A stretch of DNA of 55,591 bases from a virus (IMGVR_UViG_3300032237_001108:1-55591); one strand, 5' to 3'. Positions 2,019 to 19,266 are shown, counted from the stretch's first letter. Numbers and translations: made by a program. The notes: generated by a model from the sequence alone, not told the origin.

Positions 2019-4223
2019 TCAATAGAGTCGTGTGCGTGGGGCGCGATAGCCTTTCCTGCCTTTTCGACTGCTAGGAATGAACCCTTCATTTCGATAGGCA
2101 TAGGCTGCTTGGGCGATTTGAAGCGACCTTTCAGCTTTACGAATACCTCCCGCAGGCGTGTTCCCGCCAATTCGGCTATTAACTATCCTGGCCGCTGTGT
2201 CCTCTCGGCGGCTGGCGCGGGCGTTCCCACGGCCAGCCTTGCTGCTTGCCTCGCGGCTTGCCTGCTGAAACAGATTGACCTTCATTGCGGTTGGCTTAGG
2301 CGGCCTGGCGCCTTTTGCCTTCACCCCCCTCCGCGCCGCCAACACCCCCGGCTTCATCCCCCGCGGCTTGCGCACGGTCCCGGCGGGGCGCTTGGCGCGA
2401 GTCTGAGGGCTGGGCTGTGACGCTTTGGCCGTCAGCCTTGGCGCCTTGAGAGTCAGCCCACTCACGCTATCGGGGCCGGGGTTCTTGACTGTGCTGTAGC
2501 GCCTTTGTTTGCCTGGATTATCCATGGCATACCTGGCGCGAACCGCTGTGGTGATTGAGTTGTATGTGCGCCTGCGGATTGCCGCTGTTCTTGAAGTGCG
2601 GCGGCCACCGTTTGCCGCAACCCGCTGGGCCTCTGCTTTATCCCGCCTCAGCAGGATGTTATCGGGAGAAAGCGCCTTGCCAACACGGCTCCTGCCGCTC
2701 GCCATCCGCGCCTGACGTGTTGCCGCAGGCTTGGGCTTGGCTGCAGAGCGACTGCGAAGGATCGTGCCGGGGCGGGACTTGTTTGCCGCGCCACGCGAAG
2801 CCCATGCAGCGTTGCTCTTTTTTACCGCTGCCTTTCCGGTCTTGTTTCTGTTGCGCATCCAAGTGGCGTATTCCTTCTGAAGTCGCCGATACTCGGCTAC
2901 TTTTTCAGGGCTGGCCTTGGCAATGTTGGCATCCCGTACCTTTGAACCGCCAAAAAAGTTTTTAGGGTTGTACGGTTGCGCTGTGTATGGATACTTTGCC
3001 GCTTCTTTGCTTGCGGCGGCTGACTTTTTCCCGAGGGATCTGTATGTGGCCTGAGGGGTCGCGACCTTGATCCGCTTAGCCGCTGCCTTCTTGGCAGCCG
3101 CCTTAGCTGCCTTCGCGGCGGCCTTTGCCGTGTTGTCCTTGATTTTGGCGATCCGCTTGCGCAGCACCTCGGGGTTGCTGGTTCTGGTCAGCCTTGATTT
3201 CGTCTTGGTCTTGGGGTCAACCTTCCCGGCGTAAATCTGCTGGGCACGCCTGGCGACGGTTGCGCTACGGCTGGCCTTGCTACCTGGGCCGTCCGCCTCC
3301 CGAGCCCACGCGACCAGTTCATTGCGGCCTGCTCGCTGGCTTCTTGCGAGCTGCCTTTGCTGCTGCCTGGCGCGGGGCGAATCAGCAGGGGCCTTGGGCA
3401 CCGCGGCGGAGCGCCTGCGCTCCATGTTCCTAAGCACGGCTGCCGCCGAGTTGGCCATGCGCCTTGATCCTGCGTCGGCCCCTTGAAGATCCCTGTTGCG
3501 GTCGCGGGCGTTGCTTCTGGCGGCGAGGTAGGCCCGCTGTGCCTTGTTTGTGGGCTTCTTGGATGGCCGCTGCGGTTGCTGCTTGGCTGCCCCACCCTTC
3601 TGCGGTTTGTTGTTATCAACAACCTGCTTACGACGCGCCGCCAGCGCCTTCTTGTCCATGGATCCGGTAAGCGGCGAGAATGCAGCCTTTCGCCTTGGCA
3701 TGGAGCCGCTGTAATAGCTCTGTGCCCCCTTGGCGACCGCATAGCCAACCCCGGCCCTTGTCCTGAGCCCGGTCCCTCTCATCGCCGGGCCCTGGAGCCG
3801 CTTCTCGTTCGCCTGCGCTCGTTGCATGGCTCGCTGTTGCTGTCCAGGGCGAGCACGGGAGAGGCCTGCCGCTTTCCGCCCCCCAACCGCCCGCACCGCC
3901 GCCAGACTCCGCGCCACGCTCCCGCGCACACCCCGGCCGCCCTTGGCGATCGTGCCCGAGCGGAACCCCGCCGGCCGCATGGAAGCGATCTGCGTTGCCC
4001 GGCGGTTGCCGCCTGCCGTCTTGAGCCTGCCGCCGCGCACCGTGGCCCCATTCCGCCCGATCCCGCTGATCCGCCCCGCGTTGTCCCGGTTCAGCCGGTT
4101 GCCTGCCCGCATGGCTGCCCGCCGCGTTGCAGGGGTGCTCCGTTTGGGGCCCCCACCACCGGGCGAACTGGCGAACCGGCCGCGGTTGTCGCGGGTGTAG
4201 CTGGTGCGGCGACCTCGGTGCAT
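2019..4223 (-). CDS. Arginine-rich paralog ARP-1 (734 aa), polycationic low-complexity protein
   Basis: Start moved to ATG 4223 (MHRGRRTSYTRDNRGRFASSPGGGGPKRSTPATRRAAMRAGNRLNRDNAGRISGIGRNGATVRGGRLKTAGGN), which aligns with four paralogs. Motif I lies 28 nt upstream. Contains a histone-H1-like tract AKAAAKAAKAAAKKAAAK (about 3070-3135) and the hinge RPAGTVRKPRGMKPGVLAAR (about 2341-2390). Confidence 0.7.
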   Translation of the reverse strand: MHRGRRTSYTRDNRGRFASSPGGGGPKRSTPATRRAAMRAGNRLNRDNAGRISGIGRNGATVRGGRLKTAGGNRRATQIASMRPAGFRSGTIAKGGRGVRGSVARSLAAVRAVGGRKAAGLSRARPGQQQRAMQRAQANEKRLQGPAMRGTGLRTRAGVGYAVAKGAQSYYSGSMPRRKAAFSPLTGSMDKKALAARRKQVVDNNKPQKGGAAKQQPQRPSKKPTNKAQRAYLAARSNARDRNRDLQGADAGSRRMANSAAAVLRNMERRRSAAVPKAPADSPRARQQQRQLARSQRAGRNELVAWAREADGPGSKASRSATVARRAQQIYAGKVDPKTKTKSRLTRTSNPEVLRKRIAKIKDNTAKAAAKAAKAAAKKAAAKRIKVATPQATYRSLGKKSAAASKEAAKYPYTAQPYNPKNFFGGSKVRDANIAKASPEKVAEYRRLQKEYATWMRNRNKTGKAAVKKSNAAWASRGAANKSRPGTILRSRSAAKPKPAATRQARMASGRSRVGKALSPDNILLRRDKAEAQRVAANGGRRTSRTAAIRRRTYNSITTAVRARYAMDNPGKQRRYSTVKNPGPDSVSGLTLKAPRLTAKASQPSPQTRAKRPAGTVRKPRGMKPGVLAARRGVKAKGARPPKPTAMKVNLFQQASREASSKAGRGNARASRREDTAARIVNSRIGGNTPAGGIRKAERSLQIAQAAYAYRNEGFIPSSRKGRKGYRAPRTRLY

Positions 4224-4251
4224 GGCGGTTTGGCGGTGAATCCTCTGCGGC

Positions 4252-4261
4252 AGTTTTCCCG
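4252..4261 (-). promoter_or_regulatory. Motif I copy 2 (CGGGAAAACT)
   Basis: Exact 10-mer, 28 nt upstream of ATG 4223 (ARP-1), in the divergent gap facing nblA. Confidence 0.6.
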
Positions 4262-4329
4262 TCAGCCCAGCCACGCACCCCCGAACCCTCCCGCGTGCCT
4301 GTCTGGATCGGAATAGCTAACCTCAGGCC

Positions 4330-4548
4330 ATGCCAGCCCCCGATCCTGTCGCCGGTTTTCTCCCTGCGGACCCCGCGGGGATGGAGCTCAGTGCCGCGCA
4401 AGCCTTCGAGGTAGAGCGCCACAGCCGCCTGCTGGACGAAATCAGCGACGTGCAGACGCTCCGCAACTTCGCGAAGCTCCTGCTGCAGTCCTGGTACGCC
4501 CAGAAGGCGGCCACGGCCTGGGCCATCCGCCAGGGGATGCGGCGATGA
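4330..4548 (+). CDS. nblA: NblA-like phycobilisome degradation protein
   Basis: 72 aa. ELSAAQAFEVERHSRLLDEISDVQTLRNFAKLLLQSWYAQKAATAWAIRQG aligns by eye with cyanobacterial NblA as I recall it (LS.EQ.F.L......V.DIS.E.L..LF...........IRQG). Confidence 0.65.
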   Translation: MPAPDPVAGFLPADPAGMELSAAQAFEVERHSRLLDEISDVQTLRNFAKLLLQSWYAQKAATAWAIRQGMRR

Positions 4549-4709
4549 CTTGCGGCCTGATTCGCCTGATCTGCGAGGAGCCCTTGAGCCCCCCGCCCGG
4601 CCAGGAGGGTCGGTCGCTTGTGGTTGACATTGCCCCCGAACAGGTCGCTGCCGAGGTGGCTCGGCTGCAGGGCGAGGGCTGGCAAGTCGTCTCCGAATGG
4701 GCCCTCTGA
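4545..4709 (+). CDS. Hypothetical 54-aa protein
   Basis: Below the ORF-track cutoff. MTCGLIRLICEEPLSPPPGQEGRSLVVDIAPEQVAAEVARLQGEGWQVVSEWAL. It has an ATGA overlap with the nblA stop and a TGATG overlap with the endolysin start, so it is translationally coupled on both sides. Confidence 0.45.
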   Translation: MTCGLIRLICEEPLSPPPGQEGRSLVVDIAPEQVAAEVARLQGEGWQVVSEWAL

Positions 4710-5782
4710 TGAGCACCAATCCACCCGATCCCCAGTGGCTCGCCCCGGCCCGGCAGATCGTCGCGCAATTCGAGGGCTGCGTGCTTACCGCCTACCCCGA
4801 TCCCGGCAGCGGCGGCGACCCGTGGACGATCGGCTACGGGCACACGGGGCCCGAGGTGGTGGCCGGCGCCACGATCTCTCAGGCGGTCGCCGAAGAGCTG
4901 CTGGCAGAAGACTTGCGCCTCAGTGCTGCCGACGTGTTCCAGCTCCTGCCGATGGCCGGGGGCTGGACCGCGAAGCGGCAGGCGGCCCTGATCTCGTTCA
5001 CCTTCAACGTGGGCGCCAAGGGCCTGGAGTTCTCCACTCTGCGGCGGCGGTTGCTGGCCGGCGAGGATGCCGACGCTGTGGTGAAGGCTGAGCTGCCCCG
5101 CTGGAGCAAGGCCGGCAGCCGGGTCATGGAGGGGCTGGTGCGGCGCCGGGCGGCAGAGGTGGCCCTGTTCTTGGCCGGTGCTTCTGCCCCTGTCACGACC
5201 GCCACGCCCCCGCGTCCGCCCGGTGGCGCAGCTCCCGATGGCCCGCCGATCTGGCCGCCGGGGATGGTGGGCCCGAAGATCCGCCCCAGCCTTAAGCCCG
5301 GTGATCACCACCTGATCGCCAACGACGTGAACGAGACGCTCACGGCCTGGAGCCATGACGGGCGCCGGCTGTGGCGGATCCCCTGCCTGTGCCGGGGGCA
5401 GGGGGGTGAGGCCGAATGGAACCGCCCGAGCACGGACACGCCGCCGGGCCTCTACCGGATCAACCCGAAGGGCATCTATCGCGACTACGAGCAGGATCCG
5501 GCCGCCAACTTCACCCCCGATCGCCGTGCCTATGGCTGGTATTCGTTCGATCTGGAAGGCCTGGAAGGGCAGGAGGGGCCCACCAGCAAGCCGTACCGCG
5601 ACGGGATCATGTGCCACGGCGGCGGGTCGGCCTGCGGCTGGCCGGGGGCCTGGAACCCGCGGCAGCAGCTCTACCCGACCCAGGGGTGCATCCGCCTGGC
5701 GAATCAGGATCTGCGCGATCGGATCCTGCCCCTGCTCGATCTGGGGACCGTGTGGATCAGCGTCCTGCAGGAGGCTGCATGA
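4709..5782 (+). CDS. Endolysin: GH24 lysozyme domain fused to an L,D-transpeptidase-like (YkuD) domain
   Basis: N-terminal QFEGCVLTAYPDPGSGGDPWTIGYGHT is the T4/lambda-type lysozyme motif. C-terminal ...GIMCHGGGSACGW...YPTQGCIRLANQDL fits the YkuD His...(S/T)xGC(I/V)R catalytic pattern. Start set to ATG 4709 (MSTNPPD). Confidence 0.85.
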   Translation: MSTNPPDPQWLAPARQIVAQFEGCVLTAYPDPGSGGDPWTIGYGHTGPEVVAGATISQAVAEELLAEDLRLSAADVFQLLPMAGGWTAKRQAALISFTFNVGAKGLEFSTLRRRLLAGEDADAVVKAELPRWSKAGSRVMEGLVRRRAAEVALFLAGASAPVTTATPPRPPGGAAPDGPPIWPPGMVGPKIRPSLKPGDHHLIANDVNETLTAWSHDGRRLWRIPCLCRGQGGEAEWNRPSTDTPPGLYRINPKGIYRDYEQDPAANFTPDRRAYGWYSFDLEGLEGQEGPTSKPYRDGIMCHGGGSACGWPGAWNPRQQLYPTQGCIRLANQDLRDRILPLLDLGTVWISVLQEAA

Positions 5783-6117
5783 GCGCGGCCTTGGAGCGCG
5801 TGCGAACGCAGCTTGATGCCCTGCAGCAGGAGATGGAGGCCGTGGCTGCCGTGGCGGCCGAGGTGGAGACGGTGCAGCACAACTGCGCCGCGGCGATGGA
5901 AGCGGCCTATGGCGATGCGGCTCGCCGCTGCGAGGCCGACCGCGAGCAACTCATCCAGCAGGGCCGGGATCTGGAGCGGCAGCGAATCCTCCTGCTGGTG
6001 TCCCTCGTCAGCGAGAGCGTCAAAGAGGGCGGCAGCAACGCCATCGCCCTGGCGACGCTCCGGCGGATGATCGTGGGGGATGAGCCGTCTTCAGGGTCCG
6101 ATCAACCCGTGTCCTGA
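5779..6117 (+). CDS. Hypothetical coiled-coil protein (112 aa)
   Basis: ATGA overlap with the endolysin stop. MSAALERVRTQLDALQQEMEAVAAVAAEVETV... No transmembrane segment seen. Confidence 0.55.
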   Translation: MSAALERVRTQLDALQQEMEAVAAVAAEVETVQHNCAAAMEAAYGDAARRCEADREQLIQQGRDLERQRILLLVSLVSESVKEGGSNAIALATLRRMIVGDEPSSGSDQPVS

Positions 6118-6147
6118 TCTACACTCCCTGTCGGGATGCTTCATCAC

Positions 6148-6181
6148 AAGCCCAGGGATCCGAGAGCCCCTGGGCTTTTTC
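6148..6181 (+). terminator. Rho-independent terminator closing the nblA-endolysin cassette
   Basis: AAGCCCAGGG-atccgagag-CCCCTGGGCTT followed by TTTT. Confidence 0.7.
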
Positions 6182-6184
6182 GTG

Positions 6185-6355
6185 GCTACTCGTCCCCAAC
6201 CTCTCGCCCCTGGCTGATCAGTAGGGACCGATAGGCCTCCATCAGCCGCTGAAGGTTGCGATGCACCACGCAGGAGCCGCCGGAGCAGATGCGCCATAGG
6301 CGCTGCCCCGGTCGGCTGTCTGCGGTCACCACATGCAGGAGGCCGTCAACGTCCA
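6185..6355 (-). CDS. Hypothetical 56-aa protein
   Basis: GTG start 7 nt after the stop of 6362..7213. MDVDGLLHVVTADSRPGQRLWRICSGGSCVVHRNLQRLMEAYRSLLISQGREVGDE. It ends just before the hairpin at 6148-6181. Confidence 0.3.
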
Positions 6356-6361
6356 CCGTGA

Positions 6362-7213
6362 TCAGGCGTTATCGAAGATCGTGTAGGCCTGGCCCAGAAC
6401 CATGAGGCTGGCGCCGTACTTGACCAGAGCACCCGCGTCTCCTTCCTCCTGCTTGGACGAGATACGGCCGTAGCAGAGCTTTTTCTCCGTGGTGCCCCCA
6501 GGTCCGACCCGCAGGTATTTCACGGCCAGCTTCTCGGCGACACCGAACTGGCGCATGACTTCCATGATCTTGTGGTCCACGGACTTGTGAACCGTGAGCC
6601 CCTTGAAGGCAATGCTGCTGTCGGTGTTGATGCCAATGGAGATGGAGGCGCCGCGGGTCACCTGATCGTGAGTGATCACCTTCTCATCGCCCATCTGGGT
6701 TTGCAGGGGTGCGCCGGTGACGTTCATCAGCATGATCGGCTTGCCAGTGCCATCCAAGGGGTAAACGCCCGTGGTGACCGTGCCGGTGTCAACTGCGCTG
6801 GTGATGTTGCTGCCGGTGAGGTCGTAGGTGAAGGTCGTTGTGGTGGGGGCGGCCTTCACGGTGAACGTGCCGTTCACGGCGGTGGCCGTGGTCGCTGCGA
6901 CCGTCACCCTGTCGGCAACGGCCAGGCCATGGGCGGTGCTGGTGGTGATCGTCACCACGTTGGAGGCAAGTGCAACGTTGGTGATCGTCTTGGTGGAGCT
7001 GTTCACCAAGATTTGGAAGGTCGAGGACGATCCGGTGGTGCTCACGCTGCCGGTGCCGCTGATCGCGTTGGCGGTGTTCAGCCAGGCGCTGAGGTTGGCG
7101 CCATTGTTGGCGGCGGCAGTGGCAGCATCCTCCAGAACGACCGATGCGAACCGCATCGGGACGAGGTAGTGCTGAACGTCCAGCGCGGCGGCGTAATCGA
7201 TCGTGGAGGGCAT
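6362..7213 (-). CDS. Virion structural protein (candidate major tail/tube protein with inserted Thr/Ser-rich beta domain)
   Basis: 283 aa. The central ITTSTAHGLAVADRVTVAATTATAVNGTFTVKAAPTTTTFTYDL looks like a phage structural beta-sandwich insert. Has its own motif I copy. Function inferred from position only. Confidence 0.5.
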   Translation of the reverse strand: MPSTIDYAAALDVQHYLVPMRFASVVLEDAATAAANNGANLSAWLNTANAISGTGSVSTTGSSSTFQILVNSSTKTITNVALASNVVTITTSTAHGLAVADRVTVAATTATAVNGTFTVKAAPTTTTFTYDLTGSNITSAVDTGTVTTGVYPLDGTGKPIMLMNVTGAPLQTQMGDEKVITHDQVTRGASISIGINTDSSIAFKGLTVHKSVDHKIMEVMRQFGVAEKLAVKYLRVGPGGTTEKKLCYGRISSKQEEGDAGALVKYGASLMVLGQAYTIFDNA

Positions 7214-7230
7214 GGCCTGGGGTGGGTTCT

Positions 7231-8474: not shown

Positions 8475-8971
8475 TGCAGTTTGCGCCAGGCTTGGATGAA
8501 TGATGCCCGGTATTGCTCGCGGTAGTCATAGGGCTCAAGGCCGGGGATTCTGATGGTCCCGAGCACCGCGTCAGTCCAGGGACGGGCGGGCAGGTTGACG
8601 AGGGGGCGGGTCTTGTCACCCCAGGGATGAATGTTGGCGCCGTAGTGAACCGCCGTGGCATAGCCCACGGCCCAGCGAAAGGTGCAGAGGCTGCCGGTGA
8701 TCTGGAAGCTATTGGAAGCACGCAGGGTGCCCAGGTCCACGATGTTGCGAGGCGAGCCCACCGGCCGGCCCTTGGTGCGGCTGCCATCACGCCGGAAGGT
8801 TCCCCCGCGCATGGTCACCCGCGGCCACGGCCACACCTTCGAGCCCAGGGCGTCCTGAAAGGCGCTGTTGAGCTCCGGGAACACGATCCGCGCTGCTGCC
8901 TCCGATGCCCGCTGCGCACGGCTGAGCGTGGCTGGGTTGACGCGCACGGTGGCCCTGGTCGCGAGCTTCAT
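8471..8971 (-). CDS. HK97 gp10-like neck/tail-completion protein
   Basis: 166 aa. PRNIVDLGTLRASNSFQITGSLCTFRWAVGYATAVHYGANI resembles the IVDTG.LR.S...YA..V..G signature of the gp10 family. Confidence 0.5.
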   Translation of the reverse strand: MKLATRATVRVNPATLSRAQRASEAAARIVFPELNSAFQDALGSKVWPWPRVTMRGGTFRRDGSRTKGRPVGSPRNIVDLGTLRASNSFQITGSLCTFRWAVGYATAVHYGANIHPWGDKTRPLVNLPARPWTDAVLGTIRIPGLEPYDYREQYRASFIQAWRKLQ

Positions 8972-9438: not shown

Positions 9439-9441
9439 GGG

Positions 9442-11580
9442 TTAGGGCTTTGGCTTGCGGGGCTTGCGGGGCTGCGCTGGCTCCTGCGCCAGTTGAAGCG
9501 CCTGCCGAATGGTGTCCTTGTCCAACAAGTTGCCAGACTTGACGCCTACTCCGTCTATCCCTTGAGATTTGATGAACTTTCGCTTGCTGTAATAGTTAAA
9601 CACCGCTTGCGCTTGCTGCTTTGTAATGCCGCCAAGTTTCTGTATCTGACCTGTCAACGCCTGCTCCGCTTGCACTCTCCTGCTGGCAATGTCCCTAAGC
9701 GCTGAGCGGGTTTCCTGGGGGAGCCTTGAGGGGCTGCGCGTTGGCTTTTGTGCTGCCGTCTTGCGCTTTGGCTTTTGATTTTCGCCGGATGGCTTGCGAT
9801 CGGGGCGAGGCTGAGCGGTTGGAGCCGGGATGCCGGGGCGAGACTGCGGAACGAACCCTTTGGGGAGAACGCTGCTGGTCATGCCCCTCTGCGGGCCGAT
9901 CCGTTTCACCCCACGCAGGAACTCAACTGCTCGCGTTGCGGTCACCTGGCCAATCGCTGCCCGGCCAGCCTGCTTCTTCGTTTCCGGCTGTGCCTTGATG
10001 CTCCGGTTGTAGTTGGCGATTGCCCTGGCCTCGGCTCGCTGCTTTTGCCCTTGCCTTCCGGCACCCTTCCTCCCCGCAATCGCCCCCACCTTCAACCCCT
10101 TCGGCTTCGCCACCGTCCCTGCCGGCCGTGCGGCCTTCATCCGGGGCCCGGCGCCCTTGGGACTGGGCTTGCGGGGGGTAGGCGCGGACTTTGCCAGGTA
10201 GTCAGCGAAATCAAGTCCTGTTTTTGTAAGCGCTGATTGCTCAAAATAGGCTCCATCCGGGCCAACGAGCCGACGCCTGCCATTTTGCACTTGGACTCTG
10301 TAACCCTTTTTGACAAAATCCTCAATAAGCGCTTGGCGAAATACGCCATTGCCATTATTTACCGTGTATTTTTCAAGGGCTGCGTTGGCTTTTGCTCTTT
10401 GCATCGGCGGCATTGAAGCCATGAAGTCTTTTCGTCGCTGCTCGCTGGCAGCGGCTTTAGCGTTAGCTGCCTTCTCTGCAGCGCTAAGCTGCTTTGGTGG
10501 AAACTTTTGCCGCCCTGGCTCTAGCGAATAACTTGGATCGAGTTTGAAGATTTTATCCCTTGCGGCTTTTCTGACTTCCAATGAATTGGAGCCGTTGTAG
10601 ATTATTTTTTCTAAATCAGCTTTTTGGCTTGCAATACTCTTGGGTGCGACTGGCTTTCCTTTTCGTGCAACCACCGTCCCCGCCGCTCTCCGCATAGCAC
10701 CCCCCAGTGCAGACCTGTCCGAGAACGACCGCGCCTTGCGGACCCTCACGTTGTCGGCCTTGCCGCTCAGGAGGTTGCCTTGGGCGACCGCTGCGGTCCT
10801 GATCCGTGCCGATCCCTTGGTTCCGGTCTTGACCCCATCGCCTGCGTATCGGCCGCCGTTGTACGACTTGCTGGCTGTGCTCTTTGTTGCCGCAGCCCGA
10901 TTCAGGTAAGCCTTGCCAGCTTCGGCCCTGGTCCTGAACGTGACGCGGCCACCGCCCTGCTTGGCCGGGTCATAACTGCCGGCCCTCATGCGGGCGTTTT
11001 GCGCCGTGCTGCGGACCCCGAAACGCTGCTTTGCGGTCTGCGCCTCTGCCCGCTGAAACTCGCTGAGCGTGGCCCGAGTGCCGACCTGGCTGGATGCCAG
11101 CGTTCTGTCCGTCTTCGGCTTGTAGCCCGCCGCCGCCGACCTTCCCCGCTTGTAGTTCTTGGGCGCCGCTGCCACCGGCTTGGCCGTGGTCACGCGCCCC
11201 CGCAGTTGGGACACGGCGCCACCCTTCCGAATCACCCCCGCCGGCCCCTTTCCAGTCATCCGCACCGTGGAGGCAGCCCGCACCTTCCCGAGCCGGTTCG
11301 CGCCCCTGGTGACCGCCCCTCTCTGCGCCCGCAGGCTCAGCGTGCCCTGCAAGCTGCGATCAGCCGGGTTCTTGGCGGCCAACTTGGCGCGGCTGCGGCG
11401 GAGGCTGCTGTGAGCCCCCAGCGTGCCGCCGGTGACCGTGGGCCGGGCCTTCCGCATGGCCGCCCGCCTGGTGGCCGGGGTGCTGCGCTTCGGGGGGCCA
11501 CCGCCGGGAGTTGAGGCAAAGCGCCCGCTGTTGTCGCGCACGTAGTTGGAGCGCCTGCCTCTACTGCCGCCGCGGGCCAT
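9442..11580 (-). CDS. Arginine-rich paralog ARP-2 (712 aa)
   Basis: MARGGSRGRRSNYVRDNSGRFASTPGGGPPKRSTPATRRAAMRK... Hinge RPAGTVAKPKGLKVGA at 10081-10128. AT-richer globular islands near 10200-10640 and 9480-9700. Confidence 0.7.
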   Translation of the reverse strand: MARGGSRGRRSNYVRDNSGRFASTPGGGPPKRSTPATRRAAMRKARPTVTGGTLGAHSSLRRSRAKLAAKNPADRSLQGTLSLRAQRGAVTRGANRLGKVRAASTVRMTGKGPAGVIRKGGAVSQLRGRVTTAKPVAAAPKNYKRGRSAAAGYKPKTDRTLASSQVGTRATLSEFQRAEAQTAKQRFGVRSTAQNARMRAGSYDPAKQGGGRVTFRTRAEAGKAYLNRAAATKSTASKSYNGGRYAGDGVKTGTKGSARIRTAAVAQGNLLSGKADNVRVRKARSFSDRSALGGAMRRAAGTVVARKGKPVAPKSIASQKADLEKIIYNGSNSLEVRKAARDKIFKLDPSYSLEPGRQKFPPKQLSAAEKAANAKAAASEQRRKDFMASMPPMQRAKANAALEKYTVNNGNGVFRQALIEDFVKKGYRVQVQNGRRRLVGPDGAYFEQSALTKTGLDFADYLAKSAPTPRKPSPKGAGPRMKAARPAGTVAKPKGLKVGAIAGRKGAGRQGQKQRAEARAIANYNRSIKAQPETKKQAGRAAIGQVTATRAVEFLRGVKRIGPQRGMTSSVLPKGFVPQSRPGIPAPTAQPRPDRKPSGENQKPKRKTAAQKPTRSPSRLPQETRSALRDIASRRVQAEQALTGQIQKLGGITKQQAQAVFNYYSKRKFIKSQGIDGVGVKSGNLLDKDTIRQALQLAQEPAQPRKPRKPKP

Positions 11581-11601: not shown

Positions 11602-11611
11602 AGTTTTCCCG
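11602..11611 (-). promoter_or_regulatory. Motif I copy 4 (CGGGAAAACT)
   Basis: Exact 10-mer, 21 nt upstream of ATG 11580 (ARP-2); followed by GCGGCAGTAG. Confidence 0.6.
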
Positions 11612-12138: not shown

Positions 12139-12152
12139 GGATCAGGACGCGC

Positions 12153-12401: not shown

Positions 12402-12461
12402 GGGTGGCTGAAGGGGTGGATCAGGAGTGGTCAAGGGATGGTCAAGGGGTGGAGGGGTGGA

Positions 12462-13952
12462 TCACTTGACGGGCTTGTAGCGCTTGAGCCTCTTGGGCTT
12501 GCCCATCAGGGAGAGCTGGCTCATGCCAGTGTCTACGGCGCGGATGCGGGGGTTTTTCCGCATGATGCCAAACCCCAAAACGCCGGTTCTGACCCTGTTC
12601 AACGTGATCTCCCGCCGCCGCCGCTGCGACGCCCTCGCCTGGCTGCGAGTCCTGGCCACGGTTGTGGACACCTTCGCTTCCCGCTTCGGCTTGGAGATGG
12701 TCCCTTTGATTCTTGCGGCGCGAGCAAAACCCTTGCGCGAGGTGCCGTATCCCAATTCCCGGCGACTCCAGGCGCCGCCCCTTATTGCGTCCCTAGACAA
12801 TTTCGGCCTCTGCGCTTTCGCTTTTGCGGCTGCTGATTGATTGCCTTCTTGAATCCTGTCGCGTGCGGTCATTGCGTCCCTGCGGGCCTTGATCCGCGCC
12901 TTGTCCTGCCCGAGGTCATTAAACCGGCCGGGCTTGTTCCTGTTCGGCTTTTGCGTGCTGTATCGCGGCGGCTTTGTCATAGCCTTGCGCACAGAAGCAA
13001 AGGCTTCGGGCTGGCTCATCTGATTAAGCATCCCTACGCTGCCCCCTTCTTTCCTTGCCAGGAAAGACTTTGCCCTTGTTCCCACTTGGATAGCATTAAG
13101 GCGCTTGACGCCTGTTTTTTGTTCTGCGCCACGAACTACATTGTTGAGCCGGCCAATAACTCGTGACACCCTGCCATCGTCTACCCTCGCCTTTCTTTTT
13201 CCACGTGCTGGCTTTGCTGCAGTGCGGGCGGCTTTGGCCTGTTTGGGGGCGGCGAGCTTTGCGGTGGTCGCCTTCCGCCGCCCACGGGAAACGGTGCCAG
13301 GGATTGCGGGGGCCTTGGCCTTGCGCGAGCTTCCACCGATCGGTGACCCGATAGCGGTTCTGGCCCTGAGTGCTTTTATTGTTTTCTTTGTCCTTGCCGT
13401 GTCGATGTATTGAATGTCGCTTGTGCCCATCCGAAAGGCTCGCCTCATAAAGGCAAGCGTTGCAATTCTATTGTTTACTCCAAACTTTTGCTGTATGGCT
13501 TGAATGCCCTCTTTATAGCCTTTTGCAATTCTCCCGTTTAGCAGCAACGTGGGATCGTTGAACGTGTCACGTGCTCGTTGCGCCGCAGATCGCTGCGGCG
13601 CTGACAGCTTGACCGACTTTTGAGGCTTAACCGCCCCCTTCCTAGCCTTCCCCATCGCCCCCGGATCCCGCCGCACCCGGCCGCGCATGGTCCCCGCCAG
13701 CGGCGCCCGCTTCATCCGATCCAGCACCGCCCCCCGCTGATTCCCGGCGGCGGTCCTGAGGCGGCCACCCCGAGCTGTGGCGCCGTTCTTGCCCACGCCG
13801 GTGATCTTGCCGCTGTTGTCCCTGGTGATCCGGTTCGTGCCCCGCTGCGCTCGCCGGGCGGCGGGCTTGGCCTTGGCCGTGGTGGTGCCAGTCGAGGCGA
13901 AACGTCCCTTGCCATCACGGACATAGGTGCGGCGGGCGGATCTTCGGGCCAT
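12462..13952 (-). CDS. Arginine-rich paralog ARP-3 (496 aa)
   Basis: MARRSARRTYVRDGKGRFASTG...NRITRDNSGKITGVGKNGATARGGRLRTAAGNQRG. AT-richer island near 13380-13620. Confidence 0.7.
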   Translation of the reverse strand: MARRSARRTYVRDGKGRFASTGTTTAKAKPAARRAQRGTNRITRDNSGKITGVGKNGATARGGRLRTAAGNQRGAVLDRMKRAPLAGTMRGRVRRDPGAMGKARKGAVKPQKSVKLSAPQRSAAQRARDTFNDPTLLLNGRIAKGYKEGIQAIQQKFGVNNRIATLAFMRRAFRMGTSDIQYIDTARTKKTIKALRARTAIGSPIGGSSRKAKAPAIPGTVSRGRRKATTAKLAAPKQAKAARTAAKPARGKRKARVDDGRVSRVIGRLNNVVRGAEQKTGVKRLNAIQVGTRAKSFLARKEGGSVGMLNQMSQPEAFASVRKAMTKPPRYSTQKPNRNKPGRFNDLGQDKARIKARRDAMTARDRIQEGNQSAAAKAKAQRPKLSRDAIRGGAWSRRELGYGTSRKGFARAARIKGTISKPKREAKVSTTVARTRSQARASQRRRREITLNRVRTGVLGFGIMRKNPRIRAVDTGMSQLSLMGKPKRLKRYKPVK

Positions 13953-13972
13953 GGCGCTGACGGTGCTACCGC

Positions 13973-13982
13973 AGTTTTCCCG
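13973..13982 (-). promoter_or_regulatory. Motif I copy 6 (CGGGAAAACT)
   Basis: Exact 10-mer immediately after the TGA of ARP-4 and 20 nt upstream of ATG 13952 (ARP-3). Confidence 0.6.
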
Positions 13983-15455
13983 TCAGGGCTTGGGTCTTCT
14001 CACGCGGCTGCGGCGGCGTGGGGCAGGGTTTGGCGAGAGGCCCATGGCTTCTCGGTAGGCCCGCATCACCTGGAAGTCGTAGCGGCGGCCGGTCTTGAGG
14101 CCTGCGTAGGTTTCGGCAATGAACTCGGAGGGGCTGGTGGTGGCGTAGCGGCTGACGCGGTGAGCAAGCCTGGACATTTCATTGCCCCTTGCCACCCTGG
14201 CCTCTTGGCTTGGCCCCTTCTGCGTGGCTAACGCCCAGTATTGGCCAAACGGCGTAGATCGAGACAACAGATTCTTGTCCTTTGCGTGCCCCATTTCGTG
14301 GTAAAAGGTGTGCATAGGCGCAGAGCTTGATTTTGCCCCCCTTCTACGCTCTTGAATTGCAGACGCAGCAGGATTTACCCAACTGGTATGCGATCTATTG
14401 ATGGTCATTTGCTTTGTAACAGGGTTGTAACTCGCAACCGTACTACTGCCGCGACTGCTGTTGTATTTCACGGACAGCCCTTGACCTTCAAACATTGCCT
14501 TAGTCGCTTGCGCATTGGCAAGTCGAGCCTTCTTATCGTCATTCGTGGCTGATACTTGGTATCTCATGTTTGCAATACCAGCTTGATACGGATTCTCCCC
14601 CTTCCTCGGCCTTGCCATAGTCCCCACCGGCCGCGCCACCGCGTTCATCAGCTCCCCAGGCCTGAGGCGGCTGGTGGCGGGGCTGCGGAAGGCCTTGGGC
14701 TTCGGGGTGGCCTTGGGCTTGATCGCCCCTGGCTTGAGGCCCTTCGGCTTGGCGATGGTGCTACCAGGGCGAGCGGCGCGGGCCTTGAGGGTTGCCCGCC
14801 TGGGCGTGGTCATTGCCGCCCGAGCCCTCAGGCTGCGAGCGCTCGCCGCGGCGTCGGCGACGATCTGCCCCCGCTGCTGGGGGGTGAGCTTGTTCTTCCC
14901 TCGCGTCGGGCTGCTCCTCAGTCGCCCCACTTGGTCGTAGACGTTCTCCCGAACAAAGCGGGCATCCCCGCTGATCTTGTTGGCCCTGGTTAGCCGTGGG
15001 TAAGAGGGAACGGTCGCAGCCACACCAACGCCTGCCGCGGCAGTGGCGTAGGCCCTGCGAGCGGGCTTCTCAACGGTCTTCCACTGCTTGGCCAGCTTGT
15101 CCCGGTGCGCCTGGTCCGCTGCTGAGCGGTTGGCGATGCGTGAGGGAACCCGCGGGGCTGGCACTGCCCGCGCATTGCCGCTCCTGCTGACCACCCCCGC
15201 CAGCGGTGCCCGCTTCAGCTTTGCCGTCTGCGTCGCCCGCTGATTCCCTGCCCCAGTGCGGAGCCTGCCCCCTCGTGCGGTCGCCCCGTTCTTGCCGACC
15301 CCAACGATCCGGCCGGAGTTGTTGCGGCTGAGGCGGTTTGTGCCCCTGGTGGCCGCCTGCTTCGGGGCGGGGCGGGAGCGAGCCGTGCCGGTGCTGGCGA
15401 AGCGGCCCCGGTTGTCCCTGGCGTAGGTCCGCCTACCCCTGCTGCCGCCCGCCAT
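13983..15455 (-). CDS. Arginine-rich paralog ARP-4 (490 aa) with C-terminal zincin-like metallopeptidase domain
   Basis: MAGGSRGRRTYARDNRGRFASTG...NRLSRNNSGRIVGVGKNGATARGGRLRTGAGNQRA. Hinge GSTIAKPKGLKPGAI at 14721-14771. HTFYHEMGHAKD (HEMGH at 14286-14300) plus a downstream SEFIAETYAG gives an HExxH...E arrangement. Confidence 0.75.
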   Translation of the reverse strand: MAGGSRGRRTYARDNRGRFASTGTARSRPAPKQAATRGTNRLSRNNSGRIVGVGKNGATARGGRLRTGAGNQRATQTAKLKRAPLAGVVSRSGNARAVPAPRVPSRIANRSAADQAHRDKLAKQWKTVEKPARRAYATAAAGVGVAATVPSYPRLTRANKISGDARFVRENVYDQVGRLRSSPTRGKNKLTPQQRGQIVADAAASARSLRARAAMTTPRRATLKARAARPGSTIAKPKGLKPGAIKPKATPKPKAFRSPATSRLRPGELMNAVARPVGTMARPRKGENPYQAGIANMRYQVSATNDDKKARLANAQATKAMFEGQGLSVKYNSSRGSSTVASYNPVTKQMTINRSHTSWVNPAASAIQERRRGAKSSSAPMHTFYHEMGHAKDKNLLSRSTPFGQYWALATQKGPSQEARVARGNEMSRLAHRVSRYATTSPSEFIAETYAGLKTGRRYDFQVMRAYREAMGLSPNPAPRRRSRVRRPKP

Positions 15456-15476
15456 TGGAAACGCTGCTACTGCAGG

Positions 15477-15486
15477 AGTTTTCCCG
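15477..15486 (-). promoter_or_regulatory. Motif I copy 7 (CGGGAAAACT)
   Basis: Exact 10-mer, 21 nt upstream of ATG 15455 (ARP-4); followed by CCTGCAGTAG. Confidence 0.6.
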
Positions 15487-15497
15487 GCTTGCCTTGG

Positions 15498-16652
15498 TCA
15501 GTCCGTCAGCACCGGGAAAGCCCCAGTCCAGCCGCGCTCCGAATCCAAGAACCGCAGCAGTTGCTGAGGGCGCTCCGGGGCAAAGCCCAGTTTCAGGCCA
15601 TAGGCGGTGGGTCCGATCAGGCTGCCGTTTACTGACCAGCCGGTGCCCATGGTGAGCTGGTGGAAGTGCCCGAAGAAGCTGTGATCAGCCCTGATTCCCT
15701 GGTCCTGCCGGTGGACCCATTTCTGGAGGGGGATCGTCAGGCCACCGATGCCACCGCCGTAGCGGATCGCATCGCCATGGTGAAACCGCAAGACCTGCCC
15801 CAGCACTTCGACGTAGAGGATGTTGCCGTCGCTGATGCGCCATTCCAGGCGGGGCTCTCCCCTGTAATGCCGGCGCAGGCTCTGATACATCAGCCATTCG
15901 TAGCTGGTGGCGTGCGCGTTGTCGGCCTGCATCTTGGGGGTGGTGCGCCCGTGGTTGCCGTAACTGCAGGGGATCACGATGCGATCGAATCCGCCGTGCT
16001 CCAGCAGATGATCAATCCCAGCAACAATGGCCCGCTCGCATTCAATTATCTGTTGAGTTGGTGACAACTCCTGAAGCTGCGCCTGTTCAGGATGCAGCCA
16101 ATTATCTATTAAATCCCCGCCCAACCAGAGCACCATTTGCCGAACATCGCAACTACTGCGGACCATGCGGATCACCTTCAGTGCATTGCGAAACAGCGCT
16201 CCGGCTCGCCGGTGAAACTCGTCTATGTCGTAGGCGTTCAGGCCGTTCACTGATTCCGCCCGCACCACGGCGCCGCAGTGCCAGTCCGAGCACAGCAGGA
16301 TCGGCACCGATTCGGATCGATCCGCGTGATCCTCAACAGGTGTCAATGCGGCAGCCGGGGCGATCTCGCGAATGTCCAGGGCGGTGGTCAGGGAATCCAG
16401 CGTGGCCGCCAGCTCCGCAAGGGCTCTATCGCGGTCGCGCTCAGCGGTTCGAGCCACCTCCCTGATCTTGCGAAGCTCCAACTGCAGCGCCAGCAGCTCC
16501 TCAGACGTGTCGCTGCGCTTGCCGTTTGGGCACATGCCAGGCAGGCAAAACGGTCGGCGCTGACCGGCCTCCTCTTGCCACTCAAACGAGCTGTCGGAAA
16601 GCCAGGCCCTGCACGCCTTAGATCGCCGGCATTGGTAGGTGCGTTCAGCCAT
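15498..16652 (-). CDS. Calcineurin-like metallophosphoesterase with N-terminal Cys-rich/coiled-coil region
   Basis: Ordered MPE motifs: LLCSDWHCG, GGDLIDN, GNHG, HHGD, GHFH. The N-terminus YQCRRSKACRAW...FCLPGMCPNG is zinc-ribbon-like. Confidence 0.8.
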   Translation of the reverse strand: MAERTYQCRRSKACRAWLSDSSFEWQEEAGQRRPFCLPGMCPNGKRSDTSEELLALQLELRKIREVARTAERDRDRALAELAATLDSLTTALDIREIAPAAALTPVEDHADRSESVPILLCSDWHCGAVVRAESVNGLNAYDIDEFHRRAGALFRNALKVIRMVRSSCDVRQMVLWLGGDLIDNWLHPEQAQLQELSPTQQIIECERAIVAGIDHLLEHGGFDRIVIPCSYGNHGRTTPKMQADNAHATSYEWLMYQSLRRHYRGEPRLEWRISDGNILYVEVLGQVLRFHHGDAIRYGGGIGGLTIPLQKWVHRQDQGIRADHSFFGHFHQLTMGTGWSVNGSLIGPTAYGLKLGFAPERPQQLLRFLDSERGWTGAFPVLTD

Positions 16653-16693
16653 GCTTTTGGCAGCGATTCAGGCTGGTTGCCCTAGTTTTCCCG

Positions 16694-16703
16694 TGACTGG
16701 GAT
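16694..16703 (-). promoter_or_regulatory. Motif I copy 8 (CGGGAAAACT)
   Basis: Exact 10-mer, 41 nt upstream of ATG 16652. The spacer contains GCAACCAGCCTGAA, a near-copy of motif II. Confidence 0.6.
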
Positions 16704-16719
16704 TCCAGTATTGGCGCCC

Positions 16720-17787
16720 CTACCCCACCGGCACCGGCGCTCGCTCGATGTCGGGATACTGCCGCCGCTCGCTGGGGGAGGGCTTGCGCACGGCCTCCTC
16801 AAGCACCTGGGAGGCACGGGCGAACGGCCAGCCCTTGCCGGCGGCAAACTCTCGGGCGGCATCCTCGCGGGCCTTCTGCCAGTAGGCCTCGCGCAGCAGG
16901 GCGGCTCGCAGGGTGGGGTCGGCCTCCTCCACCGCTTCGGTGGCCACCGGGGAGAGGGAACACCGGCAGCGAGGGTGCCCCGGCGCCACGATCTCGTCCA
17001 ACCGGTAGATCCGGCCATGGCGGCTCGCGCACACCGGACAGGTCCGCTCATCCTTGGTGGCGATCCACCGGGCGTAGCCGAACCCGTTGCGGGCAGCGGC
17101 TGCCTTCTGGGCCCCCACGTAGGCGTTGGCCAGCTCACTGCGGGCGATCAGCTCAGCCCGCTGCTCCAGGCCCAGCCGGTTGTTCAGCCCCTGCGGATCG
17201 CGGGCCCCCTGCAGGGCGGTCCTGATCTCCCCCTCCAGCACGCGGGGCCCCTTCCCGCGCCCGATGCCATCGGTGACGATGCGGGCGATGCTGTCGCGGA
17301 AGCTCTCCACCTCGCCGCGGATGTAGGCGCTGGCGGTGCTGGCGGCGGCCTCCACGGCGGCCTTGGAGGCGCCCACGAACACGCCCTGCGCAGCCGCGTC
17401 AGGGTTGGCCGTCTGCGCGAGCTGCTGCCCCAGGTCACCGCCGAGGGCCACCGCTTCGGCAAAGTCCTCGCGGTAGCGGTTCTGGAGCCACTGCAGCTCC
17501 CGATCCGACGCGAAGGCTTGGGCCAGCTCCAATAGGCGCCGGAACTTGGCGGAGCCATCGGCGATCGAGTACGACCCCGGCCGGCGCGTAACCCCATCGG
17601 CGCTCTGCTGGTCGGGAAGCTCGGGATCCACGAACTGGCCGTAGAACCGGCGCAGATCCCGCAGGGTGCGAGCCAAGGAGCGGCGCAGGGCCGCCTGCGT
17701 GTTGCTGACCGAGCGATCGGCCAGGGTGTCCAAGGCGGCGGCGTAGTCGTCGGCGAGTTGGAGTTGTTGGTCGCCGATGGTGGCCAT
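16720..17787 (-). CDS. MuF / SPP1 gp7-like minor head protein
   Basis: WIATKDERTCPVCASRHGRIYRLDEIVAPGHPRCRCSLSPV is the classical Phage_Mu_F signature. The start lies 3 nt after the ARP-5 stop (TAACCCATGGCCACC). Confidence 0.85.
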   Translation of the reverse strand: MATIGDQQLQLADDYAAALDTLADRSVSNTQAALRRSLARTLRDLRRFYGQFVDPELPDQQSADGVTRRPGSYSIADGSAKFRRLLELAQAFASDRELQWLQNRYREDFAEAVALGGDLGQQLAQTANPDAAAQGVFVGASKAAVEAAASTASAYIRGEVESFRDSIARIVTDGIGRGKGPRVLEGEIRTALQGARDPQGLNNRLGLEQRAELIARSELANAYVGAQKAAAARNGFGYARWIATKDERTCPVCASRHGRIYRLDEIVAPGHPRCRCSLSPVATEAVEEADPTLRAALLREAYWQKAREDAAREFAAGKGWPFARASQVLEEAVRKPSPSERRQYPDIERAPVPVG

Positions 17788-17790
17788 GGG

Positions 17791-19266
17791 TTAGCGGTTG
17801 CGGGGCTTCTGGCGCTTGTTTGTCTCCTGTGTTTGCCGCTTTGCTTTATCTCTTAGCTGCTTGATTGCGTTTTGCTGCTGCCTTATCGCAATCCTTGCGC
17901 CAATGTACCTATCAGCCCTGTTCATTGATGCGTTAGAGCGTCTTTCTTTTGCCTTGCGTGATTGCTTTCTATTTTGGCCAATCTCTCCCCATAGGCCGAA
18001 CTTAACAACAGGATCAGCTTCATACGCTTTTTTTGCTGTAGCTTCTTCGCGTTGCAGTGTCGTGAGCTGCTTGCGAGCGTTGCGAATCTCAGCCGCCAGC
18101 GACTTTCGCTGATCTGTGCCGCGACCATACCCATACTTTGCGGGATCGTAGTTTAGTTCAATTTGCTTGAGCCTTTTTGATGCTCTCCTAAGTGATTCCA
18201 GTTGTTTATCAGCCTTTTGTCCTCTTGCAATCAGTTTAAGGTAGCGGGGGCTAAAGCCGCTTCCGCTTGAGGCTGGGGTGTTATCGCGATTCTTGGCGTT
18301 TTCAACTTTCCTGATTTCATCCAAAACGGCAGTTAATTTGGCGGTGATCTTGCCCTTAGCTGCGCTAATTCTTTCTTTCGTTAGCGGCTTTTTCTGTTTG
18401 CCAGCAGGCTTCTGCCGCTTGGCTGCCAGCGCCCCCGGCTTCAGTCCGCGAAGTTTGGCGATGGTGCCCCCTTGCCGGCCGGCCGTGACACGCTTGGGCG
18501 CAGCGGGCTTGGACGGCGCTGCCTTGCCCTTCCGCGCCACCCCGCCGACACGAGCCCCGCGGATCGTCCTGGCAGCGGTGCTAGGCGCGAGCTGCAAGGC
18601 CTTGGGGTTGTACTTCATGCGCCCCCTATTGCCCGTGGCCAGCCCAACCTTTAGGCGCCTTGCTGATTGGGTCATAGAGCGAGTAATCGCGTCAATCTGG
18701 CCAGGCGTTAATTTGTTCTTGCGCTTGCCTACATTGGCAATTAGTTGCATCCTTCCTTCGGAAAGATTGCTCAACTGTGCTGCTGTGTTTCCTGCAACGA
18801 CAAACTTTTGCTTGCGTGCTAGGCGCTCAACCTGTATTGCACGCCTGGCCGCCTTTGGCAGGGCCCTCAGCCTTCTTCCATGGTCTTTGCGGTGCCCCGC
18901 CATCATGGGATCGGTGCGGTCCTTCCTGGCCTCTGGCGACTGCATCCAGCCGACCGGCTTCTTGGCGGTGACCACCCTCCCCCGCACCTTCCCTCCCCTG
19001 CTCAGCACCCCCTGAGGCGCCCCCTTGAGGCGATCGGTCTGCCTTGCCCTGAGGTTCCCCGCCCCGGTGCGCAGCCGCCCCCCGCGGGCTGTGGCGCCAT
19101 TGCCGCTCACGCTTGTGATGCGCCCCGAGTTGTCCCGCGTGAGGCGATTGGTGCCGCGGCTGGCTCGCTTGGCCGGCGGTCGCTTGGGGGCCCCGCCGCC
19201 TGGGGTGCTCGCGAAGCGTCCGCGGTTGTCCCGCACATAGGACGTTCGGCGGGTTCCTCGGGGCAT
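17791..19266 (-). CDS. Arginine-rich paralog ARP-5 (491 aa)
   Basis: MPRGTRRTSYVRDNRGRFASTPGGGAPKR...NRLTRDNSGRITSVSGNGATARGGRLRTGAGNLRA. Hinge GTIAKLRGLKPGAL at 18427-18468. AT-richer coiled-coil C-terminus (17800-18420). Confidence 0.7.
   Translation of the reverse strand: MPRGTRRTSYVRDNRGRFASTPGGGAPKRPPAKRASRGTNRLTRDNSGRITSVSGNGATARGGRLRTGAGNLRARQTDRLKGAPQGVLSRGGKVRGRVVTAKKPVGWMQSPEARKDRTDPMMAGHRKDHGRRLRALPKAARRAIQVERLARKQKFVVAGNTAAQLSNLSEGRMQLIANVGKRKNKLTPGQIDAITRSMTQSARRLKVGLATGNRGRMKYNPKALQLAPSTAARTIRGARVGGVARKGKAAPSKPAAPKRVTAGRQGGTIAKLRGLKPGALAAKRQKPAGKQKKPLTKERISAAKGKITAKLTAVLDEIRKVENAKNRDNTPASSGSGFSPRYLKLIARGQKADKQLESLRRASKRLKQIELNYDPAKYGYGRGTDQRKSLAAEIRNARKQLTTLQREEATAKKAYEADPVVKFGLWGEIGQNRKQSRKAKERRSNASMNRADRYIGARIAIRQQQNAIKQLRDKAKRQTQETNKRQKPRNR

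Follow-up and report, generated by a model that had tools for sequence, protein, structure and literature searches.

A lineage-specific family of polycationic proteins with a shared N-terminal tag, encoded among the virion genes of a siphovirus

Why does a phage encode five extremely basic proteins in between its virion genes? The question is raised by the viral stretch IMGVR_UViG_3300032237_001108, which was analysed over its full 55,591 nucleotides (hereafter the window). An earlier inspection of the DNA by itself (hereafter the sequence-only reading) had pointed to five open reading frames (ORFs) on the minus strand, and their coordinates and lengths were reproduced here. We call their products, in coordinate order, ARP1 (2019-4223, 734 aa), ARP2 (9442-11580, 712 aa), ARP3 (12462-13952, 496 aa), ARP4 (13983-15455, 490 aa) and ARP5 (17791-19266, 491 aa). 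The five genes sum to 8784 nt, which is 15.8% of the genome and agrees with the earlier figure of about 16%. The ARPs are a previously undescribed and unannotated family that is specific to one phage lineage. We consider that they are best explained as tag-directed, DNA-associated internal virion proteins with variable cargo, an explanation to which we give an even chance.

An N-terminal tag, a cationic body and variable cargo

The ARP frames are coding and under purifying selection. When alignable blocks were compared with orthologues on related contigs, dN/dS was 0.15-0.28 for all five ARPs (ARP1, 0.19-0.20; ARP2, 0.15-0.23; ARP3, 0.19-0.28), and the same comparison gave 0.10-0.12 for portal and MuF. 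The frames are conserved in related genomes, a point on which the sequence-only reading had made its proposal depend. Residues 86-496 of ARP3 share 93% identity with the counterpart in one related locus (L039). In addition, a middle block of ARP1 (3123-3590, minus strand; approximately aa 212-367) of about 155 residues is 91% identical to the orthologue in another locus (L003), with many of the codon differences being synonymous, and part of this block is shared with the protein P0027. The 91% identity was measured over residues 215-371 of ARP1. An alternative GTG start at 4274 is possible for ARP1; the ATG at 4223 agrees with the other four ARPs.

As had been noted, the ARPs are rich in Arg (12-16%), Lys (6-11%), Ala (13-18%) and Gly (8-10%), with R+K making up 20-26% and D+E 4-6% of the residues. 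The computed pI was 11.8-12.0 for all five, and the net charge was +148 for ARP1, +115 for ARP2, +106 for ARP3, +78 for ARP4 and +95 for ARP5 (+542 in sum). Charge is kept across family members despite sequence divergence (net charge per residue +0.13 to +0.23), and the C-termini are extra-basic, K/R reaching 46% in the last 10 residues versus 23% in the body.

All five ARPs start with a shared module of about 95 aa, and the alignment gave 57% mean column identity over about 100 aa. The module is composed of box A (YxRDxxGRFA), a Gly-rich basic linker, box B (NRL(T/x)RDNxGRI) and box C (GAT(A/x)RGGRL(K/R)TAxGNxRA). Box B is a repeat of box A, YxRDNxGRFAS recurring as NRLTRDNxGRI, so the internal duplication proposed earlier is borne out. 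On the minus strand, the module occupies 3915-4223 in ARP1 (aa 1-103, with boxes A, B and C and a box-D-like SGTIAKGGRG), 11191-11580 in ARP2 (aa 1-130), 13665-13952 in ARP3 (aa 1-96; 92% identity with the slot-B gene of L003), 15162-15455 in ARP4 (aa 1-98) and 18973-19266 in ARP5 (aa 1-98). ARP2 had been read as keeping only the first half. The first half is indeed kept; the second half is diverged rather than absent, because a 25-aa insertion and a degenerate second half remain. The JGI call of ARP2 (P0261, 671 aa; sample 3300037994, L083) starts 41 codons later and lacks box A, but the long form is backed by box A and by the upstream signal described below. Automatic annotation may thus cut off the tag in this family.

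When 5.8 billion proteins were searched with a profile of the module, 92 metagenomic proteins matched, none of them annotated. HMMER, run exhaustively over 1.84 billion cluster representatives (clusters at 50% identity), returned 424 clusters at E <= 1e-3, 161 of them at E <= 1e-10. In the best 150 of the 424 clusters (133-773 aa long), the module begins at residue 1-9, and its start is equally N-terminal in IMG/VR ORFs. Being locked to residue 1-9 is typical of targeting signals and unlike generic DNA-binding domains. The architecture that had been proposed, consisting of a constant N-module, a polycationic low-complexity body and a variable C-terminus, was confirmed and extends to hundreds of proteins.

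The sequence-only reading did not recognise the module. Nothing matching it turned up in 50,697 cultured-phage records, among PDB sequences, or in Pfam, NCBIfam or PHROGs. The five full-length ARPs likewise had no significant match in Pfam, PHROGs or NCBIfam, and a PHROGs scan of 120 family members gave nothing informative. Searching the cultured-phage records by tblastn with ARP5 and the module consensus returned nothing (for the module even at E <= 1), and megablast of 11 kb of the window against cultured phages found no match. PDB sequence searches with ARP2, ARP4 and the module profile gave only a compositional match to a ribosomal-protein tail (E 0.38). AlphaFold2 (AF2) modelling of the module from a 36-sequence alignment yielded short strands at boxes A and B only, plus one helix, at a confidence too low for a fold search (predicted local distance difference test, pLDDT, 57.5; predicted template modelling score, pTM, 0.20). 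Since no autonomous fold was predicted despite strong conservation, the module appears to be a conserved string of short linear motifs and not a domain, and the model would fit a motif that folds upon partner binding. Synonymous-only codon differences in the module exceeded non-synonymous ones in five of seven orthologue comparisons (for example, 26 versus 7 and 25 versus 9). Because synonymous differences predominate, the constraint acts on the protein and not on an RNA or DNA element.

A further motif, box D, had been overlooked in the sequence-only reading. Its core is ARPxGT[IV]AKP[KR]GLKPGA and its full consensus is (A)ARP[ASG]GT[IV][AV]KP[KR]G[LM]KPGA[IL]AA[RK]. Box D lies on the minus strand at 2328-2399 in ARP1 (aa 609-632, RAKRPAGTVRKPRGMKPGVLAARR), 10066-10131 in ARP2 (aa 484-505, ARPAGTVAKPKGLKVGAIAGRK), 14712-14774 in ARP4 (aa 228-248, ARPGSTIAKPKGLKPGAIKPK; also seen in the alignment consensus) and 18415-18477 in ARP5 (aa 264-284, RQGGTIAKLRGLKPGALAAKR), and ARP3 holds weak remnants only. 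It was seen only in ARP-type ORFs, twice in some proteins, and it is at least 90% conserved among members that share nothing else; the box D segment of ARP2 alone is 92-96% identical to slot-C proteins that are otherwise unrelated. In short family members box D follows straight after box C, and in long members variable sequence lies between the two. Another motif missed earlier, RYST(V/Q)K, recurs in ARP1, ARP3 and other family members.

Islands of 43-56% GC alternate with basic tracts of 70-78% GC in the ARP genes, as had been described, and island GC tracks amino-acid composition (r = 0.82-0.93 against R+G+A+P). Of the islands that had been read as globular domains, that of ARP4 was assigned, and the remaining ARP islands were not assignable. 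Residues 267-490 of ARP4 (13986-14657, minus strand) are confidently modelled as a zincin-fold metallopeptidase domain (AF2, pLDDT 88, pTM 0.84), and we therefore refer to this C-terminus as a predicted zincin. The domain has 52 homologues, all unannotated, with HExxH and E..AExY being invariant; four of them (P0095, P0132, P0141 and P0164) were also found by the N-module searches. The HEMGH noticed earlier is present at 14286-14300 (minus strand; aa 386-390), its H, E and H do not vary across 46 homologues, and it lies on model helix 116-126. Downstream of it, EFIAETY (14106-14126, minus strand) lies on model helix 176-188 with E178, A181, E182 and Y184 invariant, either Glu being a candidate third ligand. 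In a zincin core, a three-stranded sheet is flanked by one helix on its N-terminal side and by two on its C-terminal side (PMC5512222), and the model has helix 42-58, strands 62-66, 75-78 and 83-87, the HExxH helix and the Glu-bearing helix. The top Foldseek matches were all zincins (IrrE, selecase, SPRTN, lethal factor and phage metalloproteases), and the best matches in BFVD were phage proteins annotated as lethal factor, minor capsid protein, metalloprotease, polyvalent-associated and MuF-C (E 1.5e-4 to 3e-2). No curated peptidase family was matched significantly; the only Pfam matches were sub-threshold, to M91 (in 17 of 46 homologues), DUF4344, Peptidase_Mx and ATLF. Because no match to a named peptidase family reaches significance, the domain would form a new zincin subfamily. 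Zincin-type peptidase domains are associated with head-delivered proteins (PMC5512222). As regards the idea that the zincin is a dedicated box D protease, box D occurred in nine of nine zincin loci, and the captured region contained no zincin in six of 15 box D loci.

The C-terminal parts of ARP2 had homologues only among unannotated metagenomic proteins, several of these on phage-sized contigs. A Pfam search of 188 family members (68 + 120) gave a match at E <= 0.001 for one member only. This match is to a PARP/ADP-ribosyltransferase catalytic domain (E 2e-4) in one of the 120 members P0093-P0212, outside the window; a regular-expression search did not pinpoint the member. If real, it would be a second type of enzyme cargo. 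In ARP1, the tract at aa 366-383 that had been called histone-H1-like is rich in Ala and Lys, as described, and the label is compositional only: the ARPs matched no histone H1/H5 globular or protamine family in Pfam or NCBIfam.

Fixed slots and a shared upstream signal in one lineage

The N-module is encoded on 295 IMG/VR stretches, and 77 loci fetched from IMG/VR form the basis of the context analysis. The module ORFs in these loci are 177-812 aa long (median 447), all contexts examined belong to one siphovirus lineage, and the synteny was identical in every locus long enough to judge. Its first part reads TerL, sigma, portal, slot A, MuF, (nuclease), slot B (one to three genes), g93, g171, slot C; it continues with g156, g166, slot D, g260, g127, tail, inverted lysis genes, slot E, g146 and tape measure. 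In the window, ARP5 fills slot A between portal and MuF, ARP3 and ARP4 fill slot B, ARP2 fills slot C between g171 and g156, and ARP1 fills slot E, flanked by the inverted lysis cassette and by the gene before the tape measure. The earlier placement of the ARPs among portal, MuF, neck and tape-measure genes thus extends to five fixed slots, in which the ARPs are co-oriented with these genes.

Copy number and slot occupancy range from one to five. The sequence-only reading had regarded five paralogues as exceptional; this was not upheld, because close relatives carry four or five, so that five copies are normal for the clade, and distant relatives carry one to three short ones. ARP1 orthologues occupy slot E in at least 10 related loci. 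Some relatives have nothing in slots A and C, and all close relatives have slot C filled. The C-terminal regions are mosaics, shared piecewise with different relatives. The N-modules, in comparison, are slot-specific: that of ARP1 is 89% identical (median) to slot-E modules elsewhere versus 43-57% to its own paralogues, that of ARP5 is 88% identical to slot A elsewhere, and those of ARP3 and ARP4 reach 93% within slot B. Overall, identity is 88-93% to the same slot in other genomes versus 43-67% to own paralogues, which argues that the paralogues are ancient and have been kept distinct. The genes downstream of the ARPs are MuF, ARP3, g93, g156 and g146, with gaps of 3-30 nt, and all except ARP3 are conserved across the lineage.

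The sequence-only reading had also described a motif in front of each ARP gene. CGGGAAAACT does lie exactly 20-28 nt upstream of each ARP ATG, with no Shine-Dalgarno in between. GGGAAAACT has 16 copies in the window versus 0.37 expected, 15 of which are on the minus strand. A motif scan placed the copies upstream of ARP1 to ARP5 at 4252-4260, 11602-11610, 13973-13981, 15477-15485 and 19288-19296 (minus strand); the other minus-strand copies are at 1549, 7239, 12166, 16684, 20844, 42246, 44934, 46874, 47751 and 49337, and the single plus-strand copy is at 33216. Most copies lie about 20-40 nt before a start codon, again with no Shine-Dalgarno in between, and for the copy at 46874 the distance down to the major-capsid ORF is 168 nt. 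The motif is not specific to the ARPs but also precedes portal, scaffold, g171, tail-283, nuclease, tape-measure and other minus-strand genes. GGGAAAACT is thus a general upstream signal of structural-module genes. In other genomes, 54 of 72 module genes have GGGAAAACT, or CGGAAACC in distant relatives, in front of them at 21-22 nt (27-29 nt in some). The signal may act as a late promoter or in translation; its spacing is unlike the standard -35/-10 geometry. A conserved RNA hairpin between signal and ATG, hinted at in related loci, was rejected for the window, whose copies had z values of -2.1 to +2.2 and no common fold.

A sigma-like gene (20787-21767, minus strand; sigma-factor PHROGs, E 1e-16) lies between the large terminase and portal genes and is held at the same position in all relatives. 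The encoded phage sigma-like factor may be a candidate regulator acting on GGGAAAACT. The sole plus-strand copy of the signal is followed by a small, very basic ORF (about 33240-33438, plus strand) that begins MAKKKPTTQGQKALAKTMHEWKAGTLHSGKGG.

Proposed head packaging and the competing explanations

The tag, box D, the conserved charge, the lineage restriction, the fixed slots, the shared signal and a zincin of MuF/polyvalent type fit packaging in the head and co-ejection, and they lend partial support to the virion-packaged effector family proposed in the sequence-only reading. From these features we infer that the ARPs are incorporated into the virion, bind DNA there, are ejected and act as effectors. 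In the proposed course of events, the ARPs would be made together with virion proteins, and the N-terminal tag, box D or both would dock them onto a component of the head interior (scaffold, MuF, portal or the inner face of the capsid), and they would thereby end up within the procapsid. Once DNA has been packaged, the cationic body would be in contact with it. As unfolded proteins, the ARPs could exit through the tail along with the genome, and their variable modules, for instance the ARP4 zincin, might work as effectors or processing enzymes in the newly infected cell.

Several points weigh against this proposal. The family is known from genes alone, and the searches found no cultured relative and no homology to known packaged proteins. 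Gene position and a shared upstream signal indicate co-regulation at most, and a nuclease gene within the same module carries GGGAAAACT too. By charge-hydropathy in 41-residue windows, 91-98% of the ARP sequence falls on the disordered side versus 4-50% in six neighbouring proteins, but this measure overestimates the disordered fraction because it also calls the folded ARP4 zincin disordered. For the zincin itself, the Foldseek matches in the PDB are weak (E > 0.1) and those in BFVD are moderate (TM about 0.4-0.5). Removal of the tag in the manner of phage T4 is unsupported, because no prohead protease was found among the genes scanned. In addition, one copy of each ARP adds 2,923 aa, and a large number of copies would take up head volume at the expense of DNA.

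The nearest functional analogue of the proposed mechanism is the Dar (defence against restriction) system of phage P1. The family is new, yet the type of system closest to it is known. P1 DarA and Hdf line the capsid interior, contact DNA via positive surfaces and are co-ejected (PMC12810830), and DdrB carries a zincin peptidase domain (PMC5512222). The Dar set (DarA, Hdf, DarB, DdrA, DdrB and Ulx) comprises several large accessory head proteins, as is proposed for the ARPs. However, the Dar proteins are largely folded and have no common N-terminal tag family, whereas the ARPs are polycationic, disordered and tagged; P1 is also a myovirus, whereas the ARP lineage is one of siphoviruses. The tblastn search with ARP5 and the module consensus against the 50,697 phage records, which should include P1, showed no similarity to DarA, Hdf or DarB.

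The parallels with T4 internal proteins and with MuF toxins are looser than that with P1 Dar, as the ARPs fail the defining features of both. T4 IPI, IPII and IPIII are small basic proteins present in many copies in the head and injected with the DNA; they are directed by an N-terminal signal, and this capsid-targeting signal of about 10 aa is removed by the prohead protease gp21. The ARPs are 5-10 times larger and have no homology to them. The likeness to T4 internal proteins drawn earlier is a loose one, since the tag is about 95 aa and, with no prohead protease detected among the late genes scanned, a cleaved targeting sequence is unsupported. Box D, GT[IV]AKPKGLKPGA[IL], has the character of encapsulin cargo-loading peptides, which are short, rich in Gly, hydrophobic residues and Lys, set in a disordered context and usually C-terminal, and which dock cargo inside an HK97-fold shell. 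PHROGs class the capsid protein of this phage as a major head protein, and the likeness is an analogy only, with no sequence relationship.

MuF polymorphic toxins and polyvalent proteins combine a constant head-association part with variable effectors, and zincin peptidases are their commonest module (Jamet 2017, PMC5576092; Iyer 2017, PMC5512222). The nearest structural neighbours of the ARP4 zincin include minor capsid, MuF-C and polyvalent proteins. Unlike MuF toxins, the ARPs are almost without recognisable domains and are dominated by cationic low-complexity sequence. The MuF-linked toxin architecture that had been considered was not recovered: Pfam found PF04233 in none of the ARPs, and no immunity gene lies downstream.

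A bolder form of head packaging is that the ARPs are phage protamines, loaded via the tag and box D, which neutralise a substantial part of the DNA charge in a nucleoprotein core and are also delivered as effectors. We regard this as rather doubtful. The +542 charges carried by one copy of each ARP face about 111,000 phosphates, so that about 20 copies of each would neutralise about 10%; the protein-to-DNA mass ratio would then resemble, by estimate, that of the T4 internal proteins. Adenovirus protein VII and baculovirus P6.9 are arginine-rich, disordered, bound to DNA in the virion and neutralise genome charge; these viruses do not package DNA at phage-like density via a portal motor. In the literature searched no protamine-like core system was described for tailed phages, and the ARPs have no homology to protein VII or P6.9. 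If true, the idea would bring to phages a nucleoprotein core otherwise known only from eukaryotic double-stranded DNA viruses.

Among the alternatives to packaging, the strongest, although in our view unlikely, is that the ARPs are made together with the virion proteins but stay in the cell unpackaged as nucleic-acid binders, which condense or coat replicated phage DNA ahead of its packaging, shut down the host nucleoid or bind RNA, with the N-module serving as a nucleic-acid- or partner-binding motif. The extreme positive charge conserved family-wide, the RGG-like motifs in box C and the fact that the sole similarity to a PDB sequence is the compositional one to a ribosomal-protein tail (E 0.38) would all suit such a role, and the upstream signal shows co-regulation only. 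Nothing would require a generic domain of this kind to begin at residue 1 throughout the best 150 clusters, though, and the alternative leaves unexplained the fixed slots by portal, MuF and tape measure, the mosaic C-termini and the MuF/polyvalent-like zincin.

We hold it to be improbable that the ARPs serve in assembly only (as an internal core or spool, an auxiliary scaffold, or a chaperone of the tail lumen or tape measure), with no role after ejection or removed before maturation. This explanation draws on the location of the genes within the structural module, where slot E precedes the tape-measure pair, slot C lies among head-completion genes and slot C is occupied in all close relatives. 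Yet the phage has a dedicated scaffold (46888-47709) and capsid (45738-46706) elsewhere, the ARPs are far from the capsid gene, and they have no PHROG match to scaffold families. Slot occupancy of one to five with slots A and C empty in some relatives, fast-changing mosaic C-termini unlike those of core morphogenetic proteins, and one member with an enzyme domain also argue against an assembly-only role.

It is very unlikely that the ARPs are exported effectors or MuF-like polymorphic toxins that are set free when the cell lyses or that reach competitor cells, with the N-module as a trafficking domain. Such proteins would share the constant N-terminus and variable C-terminus, the ARPs adjoin MuF, and both the sub-threshold matches of the zincin homologues to the effector peptidase M91 and the single PARP-like match point the same way. 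MuF is nevertheless a separate gene (16720-17787, 355 aa) and is not fused to any ARP; no small ARP-specific gene that could confer immunity follows any ARP, conserved structural genes instead starting 3-30 nt downstream. The C-terminal sequence is mostly low-complexity polycation and not toxin domain, with one of 188 members having any Pfam match at E <= 0.001.

Finally, the view that the ARP ORFs are artefacts, either chance open frames in GC-rich DNA or overprinted on real genes, has next to no chance of being correct: third-position GC is lower in the ARPs (0.64-0.74) than in their neighbours (0.75-0.89) and long ORFs lie on the opposite strand, but this view is already refuted by the 424 homologous clusters, the in-frame dN/dS of all five and the mostly synonymous codon differences in the N-module, besides a confidently folding domain and an upstream signal at a fixed distance.

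If the ARPs are packaged as we propose, their N-terminus would be a new targeting tag for loading HK97-type phage heads, useful in the engineering of cargo delivery, and the phage would be the first tailed phage with about 16% of its genome given to disordered polycations that travel with the DNA. This would bear on how charge and pressure of capsid DNA are managed and on the delivery of anti-defence or takeover proteins. Regardless of packaging, annotation models can be built from a sizeable unannotated family (424 clusters) with its motifs, from a five-slot grammar and from a new zincin subfamily.

Other features of the genome

A 123-bp terminal direct repeat (1-123 and 55469-55591) indicates that the assembly is circularly closed, at 55,468 bp, and a tape-measure ORF of 1343 aa (GTG at 1523, stop at 52960) spans the junction. 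The window encodes small and large terminase subunits, portal (DUF4055), MuF, a tail protein, scaffold and capsid. The nearest cultured portal, that of cyanophage S-CBS2, is 36% identical, and in S-CBS2 the sigma-factor gene likewise follows those of the small and large terminase subunits, in that order. A GTDB scan for prophages or a host returned a single 1.2-kb contig in an Ignavibacteria metagenome-assembled genome, which was uninformative, and ARAGORN found no tRNA genes.

The major capsid (45738-46706, minus strand; phrog_212) and scaffold (46888-47709, minus strand; phrog_206) genes lie downstream of the tail genes and about 27 kb from portal and MuF, an unusual order for a siphovirus. 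Two other capsid candidates were rejected. One was ARP2, whose positional counterpart in L003 matches it at the N-terminus only; capsid and scaffold are found elsewhere. The ORF at 15498-16652 (minus strand), between MuF and ARP4, is a genuine nuclease-like gene (PHROG 'exonuclease'/'DNA repair exonuclease') that is 64% identical to genes of the Synechococcus phages S-CBS1 and KBS-S-2A. Its presence in only some relatives (L003, for one, lacks it) suggests an inserted accessory gene, which has its own GGGAAAACT copy.

The lysis cassette (4330-5782, plus strand) lies on the opposite strand within the structural module, between a tail gene and ARP1. It consists of an endolysin gene (4697-5782, plus strand; phrog_7) and a small upstream ORF; the L003 orthologue of the endolysin is a lysozyme + YkuD protein, and the inverted arrangement is conserved in relatives.

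A serine integrase (40374-41762, minus strand), a RecT-like annealing protein (35332-36615, plus strand) and an exonuclease VIII-like protein (38741-39880, plus strand) are also encoded, which suggests a temperate phage with its own recombination system. Two further minus-strand ORFs of lower GC (0.555-0.585) and with no PHROG match, at 42260-43960 (566 aa) and 47904-48869 (321 aa), may be receptor-binding or tail-fibre genes.

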